Shown: positions 2,417 to 12,951 of the stretch, one piece after another | Position numbering within the stretch: the stretch's first letter is position 1 | Layout: each line of letters begins with the position of its first letter | DNA from: an uncultured Candidatus Cloacimonas sp. | GTDB taxonomy: Bacteria > Cloacimonadota > Cloacimonadia > Cloacimonadales > Cloacimonadaceae | DNA length: 64,000 bases | Direction: 5' to 3' | NCBI GenBank assembly: GCA_964572925.1 | Contig: CAZNGW010000001.1 | Location: forward strand, 11,250 to 75,249 | Program-made: the position numbers and the translations under genes | Notes under the pieces: model-generated | Databases searched by the model: none | Told to the model about the DNA's origin: nothing | What the model saw: the letters and a program-made list of their open reading frames with translations, nothing else

Positions 2417-3349
2417 TTATCTATATTCAAAGATAGTCCAGCCCTCTTTGCCCAAGGCCAGGAAGATATAATCATTGGCCAGAGCCAGATCATATACCGG
2501 AACAGTAAGATAGATATTGTTTATGTCTTCGGCTTTAACGGGATTGCTGATGTCCATGATCTTTACCCCGCCCATGCCTAAGGCTATGAACAATCGATTG
2601 TCTTTCACACGGATTTTTTGAATTTCATTGGTCATGCGGATCTGAGTGATAAGAACGGGATTGTTGGGGTTGAAGACATTGAAGGCCAAAAGGTTTTTAC
2701 CTGCTCCTACCCAGACTGTATTGCCATTCTTGGCCAGGCAGGTTGCATCCACGATCTGATAGTTTGTCCCCAGGGATCGAGGATTGTTTTGGTCGGTGAT
2801 GTCCACCGCAACGAGGCCAAAATCATTAAGAGCGAAGATATAGGGATAACTGGCTAAAAAATCTTTAATACCCCATTTTTCGGAAAAGGTGGAAAGTATT
2901 TCCCGCATGGTTCCACCCCCGATGTTGATGATGTCTATGCCCTTAAAGCGATCTGCCACATACATAGTGGAGCCCTCGCGGGTTGTTTTGTCTCCGATGA
3001 TTGTTTGGGGAAAAAAGATACGGGTTCCCACATTCAGTGAATCCACCTGAATAAGCTGATTGGTAGGCTCTCTTGAGGCAACGAACAGGTAGTTTCCGGC
3101 ATGGGTTTCCATATCTTCTATGGTAAAAGGTGAAAAGAAACCGGTTTCCAGCTTTGGCTGCCAGGCATTGAAAATAGAATAAACCCAGATGTAGTTCTGA
3201 TTTCGGACATAAACCAGATCGTTGTCGTATTTGATTGAGAAGGCCTGAGCATTCTTCAGGTGGGCAAGCTGATGGATAAATTTGGTGTCTATGGCAAAGC
3301 CCGAAACGGCAATCGACAAAGCTATAAGGCAGAGGATGAAGTGTTTCAT
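2417..3349 (-). CDS. Secreted LVIVD-repeat beta-propeller protein
   Basis: Signal peptide; repeats such as YVADRFKGIDIINI, LVAVDITDQNNP, LFIALGMGGVKIMDISNP. Confidence 0.75.
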   Translation of the reverse strand: MKHFILCLIALSIAVSGFAIDTKFIHQLAHLKNAQAFSIKYDNDLVYVRNQNYIWVYSIFNAWQPKLETGFFSPFTIEDMETHAGNYLFVASREPTNQLIQVDSLNVGTRIFFPQTIIGDKTTREGSTMYVADRFKGIDIINIGGGTMREILSTFSEKWGIKDFLASYPYIFALNDFGLVAVDITDQNNPRSLGTNYQIVDATCLAKNGNTVWVGAGKNLLAFNVFNPNNPVLITQIRMTNEIQKIRVKDNRLFIALGMGGVKIMDISNPVKAEDINNIYLTVPVYDLALANDYIFLALGKEGWTIFEYR

Positions 3350-4332
3350 TTTCCCTCCAGTAACCTCTGGATAATGTTTTTGCTGGTGATACCTTCGGCC
3401 TGGGCAGCAAACGAAGGTAGGATTCGATGTTGCAGAACGTTTGTGGCGGAAGCTTTAACGTCCTCTTCTGCAGGAGTAAGGCGTCCATCCAGGGCTGCTC
3501 TGGCTTTGGCGGACAGAATGAGGTATTGAGACGCTCTGGGGCCTGCACCCCAAGCTACCCATTGCTTTATCTCCCTGGAAGCGTCTTCGCTATTGGGACG
3601 TGAACTGCGAACCAGATCAACGGCATATTTCAAAACATGCTCGCTGACCGGTAAAGATCGAATGGCCTGCTGCAATGAAATAATCTGATTACCGCTAAGC
3701 TGGGGTTTGATATGGGGAATGACAGTTCCAGTAGTACTTTCCGCGATCTTGAGTTCTTCTTCCAAAGATGGATAATCAATGTTAATATAAAACATAAAGC
3801 GGTCAAGTTGAGCTTCAGGAAGGGGATAGGTGCCTTCCTGTTCGATGGGGTTCTGAGTTGCCATCACTATAAAAGGTTTGTCCAACTGACGGGTTAGATT
3901 TCCACTGGTTACAGCATATTCCTGCATGGCCTGCAGCAAGGCAGCCTGAGTTTTTGGTGGAGTACGGTTGATCTCATCAGCCAGGATAATATTAGCAAAG
4001 ATGGGGCCTTTGATATATTCAAAGCGTTTATGGTCTGTTCCCGGTTCGTTCATTAGAATGTCAGTTCCGGTAATGTCGGAAGGCATTAAATCGGGAGTAA
4101 ACTGAATCCGGCTGAAAGATAACGAAAGTGCCTGAGCCAGAGAAGAAATCAAAAGGGTTTTTGCCAGGCCCGGAACCCCTTCCAGAAGGATATGCCCATT
4201 ACAGAAAAGGGCGATCAGCACATCATTCAGCACCCTGTCCTGGCCGATTATGGCATTGTGTATCTCGTTTAGCAAGTTTTGTTTCAAGTTTTTAAGTTCA
4301 TTTATTTCCGAGATCAGGTTGTGGTTAGTCAT
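3346..4332 (-). CDS. moxR: MoxR-family AAA+ ATPase
   Basis: HILLEGVPGLAKT Walker A, RIQFTPDLMPSDITG, LADEINR Walker B, ATQNPIEQEGTYPLPEAQLDRF. Confidence 0.95.
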   Translation of the reverse strand: MTNHNLISEINELKNLKQNLLNEIHNAIIGQDRVLNDVLIALFCNGHILLEGVPGLAKTLLISSLAQALSLSFSRIQFTPDLMPSDITGTDILMNEPGTDHKRFEYIKGPIFANIILADEINRTPPKTQAALLQAMQEYAVTSGNLTRQLDKPFIVMATQNPIEQEGTYPLPEAQLDRFMFYINIDYPSLEEELKIAESTTGTVIPHIKPQLSGNQIISLQQAIRSLPVSEHVLKYAVDLVRSSRPNSEDASREIKQWVAWGAGPRASQYLILSAKARAALDGRLTPAEEDVKASATNVLQHRILPSFAAQAEGITSKNIIQRLLEGK

Positions 4333-8932: not shown

Positions 8933-10816
8933 TTACAGAGATAGTTTCAGGCTGAGATAAAAATCCCTGCCAGGCTCTGGATAGCCATACTCACCTTGGT
9001 AGTCTGCATCGAGGATATTCTCCAGACCCATTTCAAATCCGAGCGACCGATATGGAATTTGCAGGCTTACATCGTGTTTCCAGTAGGAATCGAGACTGTG
9101 ATACAAACCATTGTCATCCTGGGAGAGTCTCTGGTGACGGTAGGCAGAGTTCAGATTGATAACTGCCTTCAAGGGAAGTTTCAGGCTCTGGCTGAGATCA
9201 ATGGTATGGGGTGGGGTTTCGGTAAGCCGGTAATCACTTTGCTTCAGATAATCCATCCAACAATAGCCAAGGGCAACCTGATAGGCTTTTGCCGGAGTAA
9301 TCACCAATTCAGTTTCAAGGCCGAAGGAATCAACTTTGTATACGTTGGCGTAGTGTCCAGCAAAAAGGTCAATCAGATTACGGGTGCGATTATAGAATAC
9401 ACTTGATGAAATGCTTGCAGTTTTACCAAACAGTGGCTGAAAGTGGCTTATTTCTGCTTTCAAAGCATTTTGCGGTTTTAGTTCAGGATTGCCCTTACTT
9501 GCCGAGAACAGCTGTCTCATAGTAGGTTGAGCACTGGCCAGGCCCAAAGCGAACTTGCTGGTTACACCGGATTTTCCAAGATATTCCAAGCCGCAAGCTG
9601 GTTCCGGCAGCAAATGCGTTTTACCGGTTTCACTATTGGTGCTAAAAACAGTGCCCAAAGCAGCATTAAACTTCAACCCGTCAAGCAGGGGAAGAGCATA
9701 CTGGGCAAAGGCAGAATGTATCGACACCCTGTTATCTGTCCATTCCAGATAGTAATCATTATCCTTACGGGTAGTGAGTAGCAGTTCACCCCGATAACCC
9801 AAATCAAGGGTTTGGCCTTCCCCAAACTGCATTTTCAGCTTGGGAACGAAGCTATAACTATCGGTGCGCATACTGGAATCGAGACTAAGAACTTCACTCC
9901 CATTCAGATAGTTAAATTCCAGCAAGCGATCCTCTGCGCGGTCTTGTGCCAGAAGAATCGTGAACAGCATGCGTTCACTAAACTGGAATTTTCCGCTGAG
10001 GCCAGCACTTTCTCTCAGCCAATTGTCGTAGCGTCGTCTCTTGCGTTCATAAATGGAGGAGGGAAGATTCTTGTCGTCCATCCTGCTGAGATTGAAATCA
10101 AATGCCAGTTCGTGAAAGTCCAGTAGATCATAACGGACTCCTCCATTCAAGTTGTATCTTGATCCATCGCTATTATCCCGAACCCCACCACTTTCAAAGG
10201 AAGTTGGTAGAAAATCACTGGAAAGCATAAAACCGTCAGTTTTTTGCCAAGCCCCTGAAAGACTGTAACTGAGATTATCGAAACTGTGCGAAGTGCTCAA
10301 CCGGTAGTCCTGGGCATTGTTCCTTCTGAAAACGGTCTCAAAGCTGAGCCAGTTGTCCCGGGAAGGACTATTGGTGATTATGTTAACCACTCCGCCCATG
10401 CTGTTTGAGCCAAATTGGGGAGATACCGGACCTTTGATGATCTGGATTTCCCTGATATCCAGCACTGATAGCTTGCTTAGATCAACATTTCCAAAATAAC
10501 CGTTATTGAGAGGTCTGCCATCAACCATTACCTTCACTTCGTTTTTGCGAAAACCACGGAGTCTCAGGTTGCTTTCGTCTTTACTGCCCAAAGTTGCGCT
10601 GATCCCGGGTAAGTTTTGCAGAGCATCCTTCAAGCTGGAGGCCTGGGAGGAAGGGCTTTCCACTCGCAAGAGCTGGCCAATCGCTTCAGAAGGGCTATTG
10701 ATAATAACCCTGACAGTTGGTAAAGTCCAGGTTTTCAGGCTGTCAGGACTTTGCCTGGCTGTCAGGCTAAATACCAGGAGACTGCAAAACAGAGCCGGGA
10801 TCAGCTTTCGGAACAT
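8933..10816 (-). CDS. TonB-dependent outer-membrane receptor
   Basis: Signal peptide, TonB-box-like TLPTVRV, plug motifs LRLRGF...VMVDGRP and IQIIKGPVSPQFGSNSMGGVVNIIT, C-terminal ENILD...PGRDFYLSL beta-strand. Confidence 0.93.
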   Translation of the reverse strand: MFRKLIPALFCSLLVFSLTARQSPDSLKTWTLPTVRVIINSPSEAIGQLLRVESPSSQASSLKDALQNLPGISATLGSKDESNLRLRGFRKNEVKVMVDGRPLNNGYFGNVDLSKLSVLDIREIQIIKGPVSPQFGSNSMGGVVNIITNSPSRDNWLSFETVFRRNNAQDYRLSTSHSFDNLSYSLSGAWQKTDGFMLSSDFLPTSFESGGVRDNSDGSRYNLNGGVRYDLLDFHELAFDFNLSRMDDKNLPSSIYERKRRRYDNWLRESAGLSGKFQFSERMLFTILLAQDRAEDRLLEFNYLNGSEVLSLDSSMRTDSYSFVPKLKMQFGEGQTLDLGYRGELLLTTRKDNDYYLEWTDNRVSIHSAFAQYALPLLDGLKFNAALGTVFSTNSETGKTHLLPEPACGLEYLGKSGVTSKFALGLASAQPTMRQLFSASKGNPELKPQNALKAEISHFQPLFGKTASISSSVFYNRTRNLIDLFAGHYANVYKVDSFGLETELVITPAKAYQVALGYCWMDYLKQSDYRLTETPPHTIDLSQSLKLPLKAVINLNSAYRHQRLSQDDNGLYHSLDSYWKHDVSLQIPYRSLGFEMGLENILDADYQGEYGYPEPGRDFYLSLKLSL

Positions 10817-10820
10817 TTGA

Positions 10821-11630
10821 TCAATAATCGGTAAGAACCGTTGACTGATATCCCGTCATACTTTCCGGAATGGTCACATTGAGGCTGGAAAGCGTATTGG
10901 GAGCCAGCGGGAAGTTAAAAACCTGGGCATCACCACCCAGTACAATCATTCTGGCAAGTTTTTTGAACTTCTTGTGCGAACCATCCATACTATCGTTAAA
11001 AGCGGGGAAGGTAGTTTTTTCTGAATTTAGGAGATAATAACCATCGTTGATCTGATCAAGGGTATAGTCCATCGTATAACCATCAACGGCGATCAAACGA
11101 ATCGTATCGGCGGTAGAAATGCCCTGCATCAGGTCGCTGAGCTTGATTGCGTCTTCCATCGTGCTTGACCAGTTTTCCACCGAGTGGATGGTAAGTCCTT
11201 TAAGTTCCACGGTTTTTTCGCTTCTACCGCTTTGCACTTCCACTTTTCGATACAGACGCACTGTGCCGGTGTTTTTCACCTTGAAAGCGCTGGGCAGGCT
11301 GAGAGAAGCCGGGAACCAGGTTTTACGGTTGTCAGAAGGAACCAGGAAGCCTTCTTTGAAAAGCTCCCAGTTCAGATCATAACCTGCATTAACGGATAAA
11401 CGAGGGCTCCAGGCATCGCTATCGGCAGTCACTATTTCGTAGGCAAAAAGGCCTCGAAAATCGGTAGTATCGGCTGCGGTGGGATCTACTATGTCCCGTA
11501 CAGCGGTTTTGAGGATAAATTGATCAAGTTTGTAACCATAAATATTGGTGTCGGTGGGGTTGTCTTTTTCACTGCATGCGGTGATCAGCAGTAAGACAAG
11601 CATGGTCAATAAAAGCAGGGTTCTTTTCAT
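10821..11630 (-). CDS. Lipoprotein with internal duplication resembling a Cys-less molybdopterin-oxidoreductase (sulfite oxidase/MsrP) catalytic fold
   Basis: Start at 11630 with GGAGG SD; lipobox LITAC; IKLSDLM...IRLIAVDGY...KKFKKLARMIV pattern and a related first repeat. Fold call is by eye. Confidence 0.6.
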   Translation of the reverse strand: MKRTLLLLTMLVLLLITACSEKDNPTDTNIYGYKLDQFILKTAVRDIVDPTAADTTDFRGLFAYEIVTADSDAWSPRLSVNAGYDLNWELFKEGFLVPSDNRKTWFPASLSLPSAFKVKNTGTVRLYRKVEVQSGRSEKTVELKGLTIHSVENWSSTMEDAIKLSDLMQGISTADTIRLIAVDGYTMDYTLDQINDGYYLLNSEKTTFPAFNDSMDGSHKKFKKLARMIVLGGDAQVFNFPLAPNTLSSLNVTIPESMTGYQSTVLTDY

Positions 11631-11638
11631 TCTTTTTT

Positions 11639-11658
11639 CCTCCATGAAAAGCAGGAGG
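11639..11658 (-). promoter_or_regulatory. SD-sequestering hairpin (riboswitch expression platform)
   Basis: Transcript CCUCC-UGCUUUUCAU-GGAGG: anti-SD at 11654-11658 can pair with the SD at 11639-11643. Confidence 0.6.
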
Positions 11659-11685
11659 CATGCAGGCGGTTTAGTCATTATTTCC

Positions 11686-11817: not shown

Positions 11818-11876
11818 GTTTGATCTTTGTTTCGCTTTGCTTGTTCCACTCTCCCCACCGCTATCTAATCCGTGTG

Positions 11877-11922
11877 CCACCCTCTATCCACCCTTATTAT
11901 AATGAGGGTGGATAGAGCGTGG
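11877..11922. repeat. Intergenic palindromic element, copy 2
   Basis: Perfect 13-bp IR ctctatccaccct (11882-11894) / agggtggatagag (11905-11917), extended by ccac/gtgg; loop tattataatg. Confidence 0.8.
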
Positions 11923-12063
11923 GTAGCGCGTGGAATGAGCGGAGTAAGGAAGGGTTCAAAAGGGGTGTTGAACTGGTTTGATGCAATGGATGGGGCGGAG
12001 AAGTTCGTTGACAGAAACAATGGCTGAAGTTCGTTGGCAATTAGCATAAATAATGGAGAAGCC

Positions 12064-12951
12064 ATGTATAGATATCTTTTTTTAGCCTTTCTGATCGCAG
12101 TTTCGTCAAGCCTGGCAGCCTTGGAGCTCATTTTTCCCGGAGGTGAAAGGCTTGGTTTCACCCCGGACAAACTGCGCAATGAAACTTTGCAAAGCTTTCA
12201 AACTAAGCGGGATAAGGACGGAGCCATGCTCACTGAAAAATGGAGTGGCATCCCACTTTTACCCTGGCTGGAACGGATATATCAAGGATCATGGCAGAGC
12301 TTGAGAGTGCAAAGCCGGGACAATTACATTGTCCATCTTTCCCGCCTGGAGCTTGGTTCTGAAAACTGCTTTCTGGCGCTCAAAAATGGTGATCTGGAGC
12401 TATCAGAATATGACATCAGGGTCATTCACACAGCTAAGCGGGAAAGTGCCTGGGTAAGGAACCTCGCTTCGATCACCCTGGAGGATTTTCAACCCTTACC
12501 CCAGCCCCGGCAATTGCTGCTCTGGGAGAACTGGACTAAAGATAACAAGGCTTTGTTTAACACGGGATCCCTCAGATTGGATGAATTTATGTTGAAGGCT
12601 TTCGGCTTAACAGAAGGTGAACTGCTGCTTTTGGATAGCAAAATGAATCGAATTCGTCTGGAGGTTTCCGGAGAAATGGCCAATGGAACCCTTGAACTTA
12701 ATGGTGAAGGATTTCCCAAACTGGGAGGAAAGGCAGAACAATTGGGGCTCTCGGATTTGGTTTATCTCCAGGCAGGCCACTGCGCTCTGATCAGTAAAAC
12801 CGGCTTGGCTAACCTGACAAAGATTGGCCAGGAATTACGTTGGAATTGGGACGGGAAATACCTTAATAAGGTTAAAACACATAGGCAAAAGATTGAGACT
12901 AATGAATTGCCGTTTTCGCTACCGCAAGGAACCTGGTTGGAACTAAACTGA
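12064..12951 (+). CDS. Exported protein with an N-terminal Cys-less molybdopterin-oxidoreductase-like domain
   Basis: ATG 12064 with GGAG SD; signal peptide; WSGIPLLPWLE...VQSRDNY...LALKNGD...IRVI...WVRNLASITL parallels W.GV.L..ll...DgY...LA...nG...lRlv...vKwl..I. Confidence 0.65.
   Translation: MYRYLFLAFLIAVSSSLAALELIFPGGERLGFTPDKLRNETLQSFQTKRDKDGAMLTEKWSGIPLLPWLERIYQGSWQSLRVQSRDNYIVHLSRLELGSENCFLALKNGDLELSEYDIRVIHTAKRESAWVRNLASITLEDFQPLPQPRQLLLWENWTKDNKALFNTGSLRLDEFMLKAFGLTEGELLLLDSKMNRIRLEVSGEMANGTLELNGEGFPKLGGKAEQLGLSDLVYLQAGHCALISKTGLANLTKIGQELRWNWDGKYLNKVKTHRQKIETNELPFSLPQGTWLELN

Follow-up and report, generated by a model that had tools for sequence, protein, structure and literature searches.

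The minus strand of a 64,000-nucleotide stretch of contig CAZNGW010000001.1 from an uncultured Candidatus Cloacimonas sp. (hereafter the window, whose numbering is used throughout unless another contig or locus is named) encodes a 269-residue lipoprotein at positions 10821–11630, immediately upstream of a gene for a TonB-dependent receptor. Our best explanation, to which we assign a probability of about 0.6 as a whole, is that this lipoprotein arose through tandem duplication of the cysteine-less, PruR-type branch of the molybdopterin-binding fold of sulfite oxidases (SUOX), and that it serves as the ligand-capture partner of the receptor in the salvage of a pyranopterin cofactor, i.e., molybdenum cofactor (Moco) or tungsten cofactor (Tuco). 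The original prediction, made from the DNA alone, had proposed that an enzyme fold was reused here to capture a cofactor for the adjacent receptor; the fold, the riboswitch and operon partners, and the missing biosynthesis genes all support that proposal.

Internal repeats and fold of the lipoprotein

Profile comparisons show that the lipoprotein contains two copies of one domain. With a 203-sequence family profile that takes in distant relatives, hhalign aligned residues 29–130 with residues 158–234 over 73 columns (probability 98.1%, E = 1.3e-13); 20 shuffled-column controls gave P values of at least 0.026 and a top score of 15, against 71 observed. The five motif pairs from which the duplication was first predicted by eye (GYKLDQF/AIKLSDL, EIVTAD/RLIAVD, GFLV/GYYL, KTWFP/KTTFP, and FKVKN/KKFKK) are all in register in the hhalign alignment. 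The order of secondary-structure elements is also repeated in the structural model described below. This is a genuine and ancient duplication whose copies have diverged strongly. Neither the lipoprotein sequence by itself nor a set of close homologues reveals it: BLASTP between the N- and C-terminal halves returned no alignment, and hhalign with 42 close homologues reached a probability of just 9% (P = 0.0036) over the stretch GFLVPSD..KTWFP / GYYLLNSEKTTFP.

We modelled the protein with AlphaFold2 on the family alignment, obtaining a mean predicted local distance difference test score (pLDDT) of 94.1 and a predicted template modelling score (pTM) of 0.85. When the full-length model was searched against the PDB with Foldseek, the only consistent matches were PruR "putative pterin-binding proteins" from four species (7kom, 7rkb, 7kp2, and 7kos/7kou), with probabilities of 0.92–1.0, target-normalised template modelling (TM) scores of 0.45–0.55, E-values from 3e-3 to 0.12, and alignments of approximately 136 columns that span the entire PruR protein. 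The four top entries (7kom, 7rkb, 7kp2, and 7kos) reached probabilities of 0.99–1.0 and target TM scores of 0.50–0.55. Staphylococcal superantigen-like matches were dismissed as noise (TM 0.15–0.2, probability at most 0.2). Repeat 1 modelled alone (residues 26–136; pLDDT 93.7) matched nothing significantly in Foldseek and lost every PruR match, and by elimination the PruR match therefore belongs to repeat 2. The highest query-normalised TM score of repeat 1, 0.42, was to the Thermus thermophilus sulfite oxidase and was not significant (E = 7.4). Repeat 1 is the more degenerate copy of the duplicated domain.

PruR, whose fold is a truncated version of the SUOX Moco domain, binds pterins in the periplasm without acting as an enzyme, and a tryptophan stands in for its Mo-ligating cysteine (PMC11194511). 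Judging from the Foldseek matches, the lipoprotein likewise has an exported, cysteine-less, truncated form of the SUOX fold, and lacks the Mo-ligating cysteine of the SUOX family. Since a catalytic Mo-ligating cysteine is absent, we interpret it as a protein that binds its ligand and does not act as an enzyme. An enzymatic role, such as that of an MsrP-like reductase with another ligand in place of the cysteine, was considered and rejected, given that no cysteine is conserved in the repeats, that the repeats fall well below a catalytic Moco domain in length, and that the gene lies in a transport-operon setting. Its nearest relative is PruR, a pterin binder without enzymatic activity, and not one of the SUOX enzymes. 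A common fold ancestry with the SUOX enzymes (PF00174: sulfite oxidase and MsrP/YedY) is inferred from the PruR match, the query TM score of 0.42, and the transitive profile matches given next, but the lipoprotein differs from these enzymes in having repeats far shorter than the Moco domain, no Mo-ligating cysteine, and no dimerisation or heme domain.

The transitive matches run through the product of orf305, a divergently transcribed neighbouring gene. Repeat 2 matched the N-terminal domain of the orf305 family in hhalign (probability 91.9%, E = 6.9e-7), and the orf305 family in turn matched the one genuine PF00174 protein of this genome (probability 88.5%, E = 2.7e-6); the orf305 family had been rebuilt from fetched loci, as the word-indexed homologue search gave only three matches. 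Two orf305-like proteins matched PF00174 directly at E = 2e-4 (the member at locus L070) and E = 0.008, both under the gathering score. Neither lipoprotein repeat aligned significantly with the genuine PF00174 protein in direct hhalign comparisons limited to that single sequence (P = 0.08 and 0.7). The predicted SUOX-like character of the second repeat thus holds through the structural match to the PruR branch of the fold and through transitive profile homology, but not through any direct match to PF00174. The genuine PF00174 protein (C5:21029-21766; L063:1315-2052) has 245 residues, a PF00174 score of 109 bits, and an N-terminal signal or anchor. By eye, it carries SVTRWS where MsrP-type enzymes have their cysteine-containing motif, and it may be another non-catalytic SUOX-fold protein.

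At the level of sequence, the lipoprotein family is unannotated, since its members have no Pfam match. Pfam and NCBIfam scans of the lipoprotein yielded signal-peptide noise only, with no PF00174 match at E ≤ 1 and hence no PF00174 membership by gathering score; scans of 78 family members one by one against Pfam likewise found no PF00174 at E ≤ 1 and nothing meaningful. A genome-wide PF00174 search (E ≤ 10) retrieved neither the lipoprotein gene nor orf305. In a sequence-profile search of the PDB, similarity to PruR was undetectable; a match to PatB1 (E = 0.004) was judged spurious and the other matches were weak and unrelated. The word-indexed search found 134 homologues at E ≤ 0.001, the best 120 of which are 47–95% identical to the lipoprotein; the named homologues among the matches listed are all "hypothetical protein" of Cloacimonadota and none has a Pfam domain. 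A profile search over 1.84 billion representatives recovered 145 proteins at E ≤ 1e-3, mostly of 250–300 residues, many of which match over residues ~30–233 only. At two loci led by the riboswitch described below (L067, G001:C8:14201-15769; L068, G020:C1:1382456-1384129), two family matches lie within one frame of 626–655 residues, which suggests a further tandem duplication or fusion that would place four SUOX-like repeats in a single protein.

The lipoprotein reading frame runs on the minus strand from an ATG at 11630 to a stop codon at 10821–10823, and a GGAGG motif is located 8 nt 5' of the ATG. The N-terminus, MKRTLLLLTMLVLLLITAC, is a signal peptide with a classical lipobox (residues 1–19; 11574–11630), in which LITAC fits the pattern L-x-[AGS]-C. 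As predicted, the lipobox cysteine C19 is the single cysteine of the whole protein (P0001); it is also the sole invariant cysteine in an alignment of 42 homologues, with no other cysteine conserved. An acidic linker, SEKDNPTDT (residues 20–28; 11547–11573), follows C19 and has low pLDDT in the model. It leads into repeat 1 (residues 29–136; 11223–11546), the degenerate SUOX/PruR-like domain defined by its alignment with repeat 2. The more canonical repeat 2 (residues 137–236; 10923–11222) has the pattern VELKG..NW..AIKLSDL..VDGY..GYYLL..TTFP..KKFKKL..I.V. The C-terminal tail (residues 237–269 and the stop codon; 10821–10922) contains two short strands in the model and an invariant P255; it is missing in many distant relatives, whose matches stop near residue 232.

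Each repeat has an invariant tryptophan (W88 and W154, respectively) and a D-G-aromatic motif, i.e., DGY at 183–185 in repeat 2 and the consensus DG[FWY]SPR in repeat 1; the features of PruR to set beside these are its pterin-stacking Tyr/Trp and the Asn of its N-x-Y motif. Among close homologues, most of the invariant polar residues are in repeat 1 (R59, S75-P76-R77, D85, and R128), and it is also here that all positions near-invariant in distant relatives, beyond the lipobox cysteine, are found (D70, W88, G94, and R128). Repeat 2 retains N153-W154, DGY 183–185, and Y199. From these patterns, we predict that repeat 2 keeps the ancestral pterin cleft, whereas repeat 1 would have taken on a special role, perhaps in holding the ligand at its phosphate or metal-dithiolene end. 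The family-wide conservation of D70, W88, G94, and R128 would place the ligand pocket in repeat 1.

Sequence features after the lipobox bear on the location of the protein. Across the family, the cysteine is followed by S-E-(K/N/D)-D, with S20 and D23 invariant and E21 at least 90% conserved. At least two acidic residues occur within eight positions of the cysteine in 110 of 114 close homologues, and a strict K-[DE]-[DE] in 35 of the 114. Cloacimonadota belong to the same superphylum as Bacteroidota. In the latter, K-(D/E)2, which the post-cysteine motif resembles, is an export signal that directs lipoproteins to the cell surface (PMC5080379). The lipoprotein is probably surface-exposed through its acidic SEKD export-like signal.

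Riboswitch control and transport partners

The lipoprotein gene is preceded by a Moco/Tuco riboswitch aptamer (RF01055; 11674–11794, minus strand), which scored 58.3 bits in Rfam against a gathering threshold of 36. The match covers the full model (1–135), with model positions 61–76, corresponding to P3, deleted. In the original description of the motif, such P3-less variants are reportedly associated with tungsten-cofactor genes. Between the aptamer and the start codon lies a 43-nt spacer (11631–11673) that contains the GGAGG ribosome-binding site and is likely the expression platform. The riboswitch was found at the equivalent site in 16 of 16 close Cloacimonadota loci and in 12 of 12 loci of other Cloacimonadales families, where the lipoprotein relative is 26–39% identical; with the locus in the window included, it is directly 5' of the lipoprotein gene in all 29 loci. 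Throughout its known range, then, the lipoprotein family goes together with this riboswitch.

Downstream of the lipoprotein gene, beginning 4 nt after its stop codon and in the same orientation, is the gene for a TonB-dependent receptor of 627 residues (8933–10816, minus strand), similar in size to BtuB. Its Plug domain scored 76 bits in Pfam, its best NCBIfam match was TonB-B12, and its best solved relative was Escherichia coli BtuB (E = 3e-17). Of the 60 loci with enough downstream sequence, nearly all have the receptor gene directly behind that of the lipoprotein. Given this co-transcription from a Moco/Tuco riboswitch leader, the lipoprotein and receptor are predicted to be made under a shortage of pyranopterin cofactor and switched off once the cell has enough of it.

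On the plus strand, orf305 (12034–12951) encodes an exported protein whose N-terminal domain is SUOX-like according to hhalign and to the PF00174 match of the L070 member. Homologues of orf305 are found within riboswitch-led operons at loci L068–L074, L025, and L058. These larger operons, which occur in other Cloacimonadales families as well as at L025 and L058, begin with the lipoprotein gene and continue with genes for a 176-residue integral membrane protein (PF09819, the S-component family of energy-coupling factor (ECF) transporters; 49 bits), an orf305-like SUOX-fold exported protein, a 423-residue PF01663 phosphodiesterase/nucleotide pyrophosphatase (30 bits), a 132-residue exported protein, two ECF-type ABC ATPases, and the receptor. 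The present genome has its own ECF operon on contig C87, encoding a PF09819 S-component (41.8 bits), an orf305-like paralogue, a fused double ATPase, and a CbiQ-type T-component (68 bits). In two genomes of the same family (G012 and G004), a second Moco riboswitch stands directly 5' of the ECF operon. Together, the receptor, lipoprotein, and ECF components of the regulon would thus make up a complete route of the vitamin type from the outer membrane to the cytoplasm.

These partners set the lipoprotein apart from PruR itself, which it resembles in having an exported SUOX-type fold without the Mo-ligating cysteine (PDB 7kom, 7rkb, 7kp2, and 7kos; PMC11194511). PruR is a single domain of ~130–150 residues that pairs with a DcpA-type cyclic di-GMP enzyme and binds folate-branch pterins for signalling; in contrast, the lipoprotein is a tandem two-domain protein encoded in a Moco-riboswitch operon with a TonB-dependent receptor. 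Its partners are this receptor and an ECF transporter, rather than a DcpA-type GGDEF-EAL or a TorS/BaeS-type protein. On its inner-membrane side, the system resembles ECF vitamin importers (PMC3766115), sharing the PF09819 S-component, the CbiQ T-component, two ATPase domains, and, in relatives, a riboswitch of the same class, but differs from them in its coupling to outer-membrane components and to an additional SUOX-like exported protein. The arrangement also parallels the capture of vitamin B12 in Bacteroides, where BtuG reportedly acts with BtuB. On the reading proposed here, the logic is shared, with a riboswitch controlling a lipoprotein and a BtuB-like receptor for scavenging a complex cofactor that the cell does not make. 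BtuG is, however, a β-propeller and not a tandem SUOX-like fold, its riboswitch and cargo concern cobalamin instead of the Moco/Tuco presumed here, and the lipoprotein-receptor complex at the cell surface is putative in the present case. Control of ECF vitamin importers by riboswitches has also reportedly been described.

Several further features of the regulon were recorded. The leader of the ECF operon on contig C87 would fall in a run of ~100 N between a dCMP-deaminase-like gene and the S-component gene (C87:~3255-3357; L079), at the site equivalent to the Moco riboswitch of G012 and G004, and this gap may hide a third riboswitch of the genome. The second Moco riboswitch found in the genome (C14:4569-4689, minus strand; L062) scored 57.2 bits and is followed by ~680 nt without an open reading frame (ORF), then by a gene for an unrelated secreted repeat protein of 628 residues. 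In genomes G003 and G028, the second riboswitch lies directly 5' of a gene for a 540-residue NAD-type aldehyde dehydrogenase (PF00171, 339 bits). By analogy with B12 riboswitches and B12-independent isozymes, this enzyme could be a cofactor-independent substitute for a tungsten aldehyde oxidoreductase, and its gene may have been lost at L062. The larger operons (e.g., L070:7763-9416 and L073:3454-5101) include the pyrophosphatase (~420 residues, PF01663) and the 132-residue exported protein. The former, for which tblastn (E ≤ 1e-3) found no homologue in the present genome, could act on the dinucleotide forms molybdopterin guanine or cytosine dinucleotide (MGD/MCD) and shorten them before import. 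Within the window, a near-perfect inverted repeat (CCACCCTCATTATAATAAGGGTGG...) at 11866–11937 lies between the promoter region of the riboswitch and orf305, which is divergent; it gave spurious microRNA matches in Rfam and may serve as a terminator in both directions or as a site bound by a protein. At locus L021 (6917–6960), an Acido-Lenti-1 small RNA match (38.6 bits, gathering threshold 37) lies just 3' of the receptor gene.

Cofactor biosynthesis and use in Cloacimonadota

The 2.72-Mb genome, which is 99.8% complete, contains no match to MoaA_C (PF06463), MoaC (PF01967), or MoeA_N (PF03453); each of the three models detected its target in 11 of 14 control genomes. The single PF00994 match, a candidate MogA, was identified as CinA. 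The genome nevertheless encodes candidate users of the cofactor: two proteins of the aldehyde:ferredoxin oxidoreductase (AFOR) family, one scoring 335 bits against AFOR_C and one divergent, and the one PF00174 protein; no dimethyl sulfoxide (DMSO) reductase-family enzyme was found. With these users and two Moco riboswitches as sensors present and MoaA, MoaC, and MoeA not found, the cell therefore has users of pyranopterin cofactors without the three core biosynthetic functions tested.

In a survey of 201 Cloacimonadota genomes, we detected MoaC in 14, relatives of the lipoprotein in 106, and AFOR_N in 146. Lipoprotein relatives were missing from 12 of the 14 MoaC-positive genomes and a close orthologue from all of them (Fisher p = 0.003–0.004). 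Among the 87 genomes of the organism's own family, 61 have both lipoprotein and AFOR, four the lipoprotein only, eight AFOR only, and 14 neither, an association with an odds ratio of 27 (Fisher p = 1.2e-7). The double-negative genomes are spread across three genera, which suggests repeated joint loss.

Proposed function and alternative explanations

We propose that the lipoprotein, displayed at the cell surface, would capture free or released W/Mo pyranopterin cofactor, or a close derivative, and pass it to the receptor, which would carry it through the outer membrane with energy from TonB. A dedicated ECF transporter, comprising the PF09819 S-component, the second SUOX-like exported protein, two ATPase domains, and the CbiQ-type T-component, would then move the ligand over the inner membrane. 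The imported cofactor would feed the aldehyde:ferredoxin oxidoreductases and the SUOX-family protein of a bacterium incapable of its synthesis. Four elements of this scheme are inferred, namely which ligand is bound, which way the lipoprotein faces, that it touches the receptor (the predicted "lid"), and in which direction the riboswitch regulates.

Several observations weigh against this proposal. The Foldseek E-values for PruR are modest, the PruR matches disappear when repeat 1 is searched alone, and no member of the lipoprotein family reaches PF00174 at sequence level. The search for biosynthesis and transport genes omitted ModA, TupA, MoaD/E, and MobA, and the Fisher tests of co-occurrence ignore the shared ancestry of the genomes. 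Within the organism's own family, the four lipoprotein-positive genomes without AFOR and the eight AFOR-positive genomes without the lipoprotein depart from the expected pairing. In the two genomes G108 and G166, MoaC occurs together with a distant lipoprotein relative (riboswitch-linked in G108, whose locus was the one examined); the system is therefore not restricted to auxotrophs. The export-signal consensus was established in Bacteroidota and not in Cloacimonadota. From a biochemical standpoint, AOR-type enzymes need a bis-pyranopterin tungsten cofactor, an imported cofactor would have to be matured without MoeA, and Moco is very oxygen-labile, though the habitats concerned are anaerobic.

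If the lipoprotein and receptor instead imported tungstate, molybdate, or a metallophore complex, the riboswitch would merely report a shortage of cofactor. Moco riboswitches classically control molybdate or tungstate transporters such as modABC and tupABC, an association reportedly noted early for this class. One example of such control of a molybdate/tungstate transporter is documented (PMC5317091). The invariant arginines R59, R77, and R128 of repeat 1 could bind an oxyanion, and the occurrence of the system in two MoaC-positive genomes would also fit. We nonetheless judge oxyanion import quite improbable: since MoaA, MoaC, and MoeA were not found, free metal could not be converted into cofactor, and 12 of the 14 genomes with MoaC lack the lipoprotein. 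The fold is also that of a pterin binder, the partner in the inner membrane belongs to the ECF transporters, with a small S-component of the vitamin type, and not to the ModABC/TupABC type, and a nucleotide pyrophosphatase is encoded in the operons of other families. Import of a metal-free or non-Moco pterin (e.g., molybdopterin (MPT), cyclic pyranopterin monophosphate (cPMP), or a pterin of the neopterin/monapterin type), as a precursor or signal, would suit the size of the repeats, which at ~100 residues each are PruR-like next to enzyme domains of ~250 residues, and metal-free precursors are chemically stabler than the finished cofactor. PruR itself binds small non-Moco pterins in its truncated cleft (PMC11194511). 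Yet the riboswitch class senses Moco/Tuco and not folate-branch pterins, the lipoprotein co-occurs with AFOR enzymes that need the finished W/Mo cofactor, and without MoeA/MogA, and possibly without MPT synthase, a precursor could not be finished; we consider this alternative unlikely.

It is similarly doubtful that the lipoprotein takes part in the same salvage from within the periplasm, taking up the labile cofactor behind the receptor and shuttling or chaperoning it to the ECF S-component, instead of acting as a surface lid. Such a role would be in keeping with the strict K-(D/E)2 signal in just 35 of 114 homologues, with ECF transporters that work without a classical binding protein, and with a relay suggested by the further exported SUOX-like proteins (orf305 and its paralogue), but the acidic post-cysteine motif is near universal (110/114), with S20 and D23 invariant. 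Lipoprotein genes immediately 5' of receptor genes also typically encode surface partners in the Fibrobacterota-Chlorobiota-Bacteroidota group, as exemplified by BtuG, SusD, and HmuY. The periplasmic location of PruR itself (PMC11194511) is a further point for such a shuttle. Overall, we favour capture of a pyranopterin cofactor at the cell surface.

In the literature that we could search, there was no published bacterial importer of Moco/Tuco and no description of this lipoprotein family, nor any Moco-riboswitch-controlled TonB receptor, Moco/Tuco ECF importer, or Moco auxotrophy in Cloacimonadota. To our knowledge, Moco and Tuco are generally held to be made by each user for itself, being too labile for exchange. 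A known exception is provided by nematodes, which take up dietary, protein-bound Moco. We see about even odds that the lipoprotein family is the capture component of the first bacterial import pathway for a preformed Mo/W pyranopterin cofactor.

If so, most Cloacimonadota would be natural Moco/Tuco auxotrophs that live on what neighbouring cells release; of the 201 genomes sampled from this phylum, 187 lack MoaC and 146 have tungsten-type oxidoreductases. Moco would then be a shared "vitamin" of anaerobic communities, traded like B12 and thiamine, which would help to explain why these uncultured syntrophs depend on partner organisms. The lipoprotein would represent a reuse of the SUOX fold for transport via tandem duplication and, as a binding module that occurs in nature and has no catalytic activity, may keep the cofactor stable and be useful for its handling or delivery. 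For a sizeable unannotated family (145 representatives at E ≤ 1e-3, with no Pfam model), the proposal provides a testable function.

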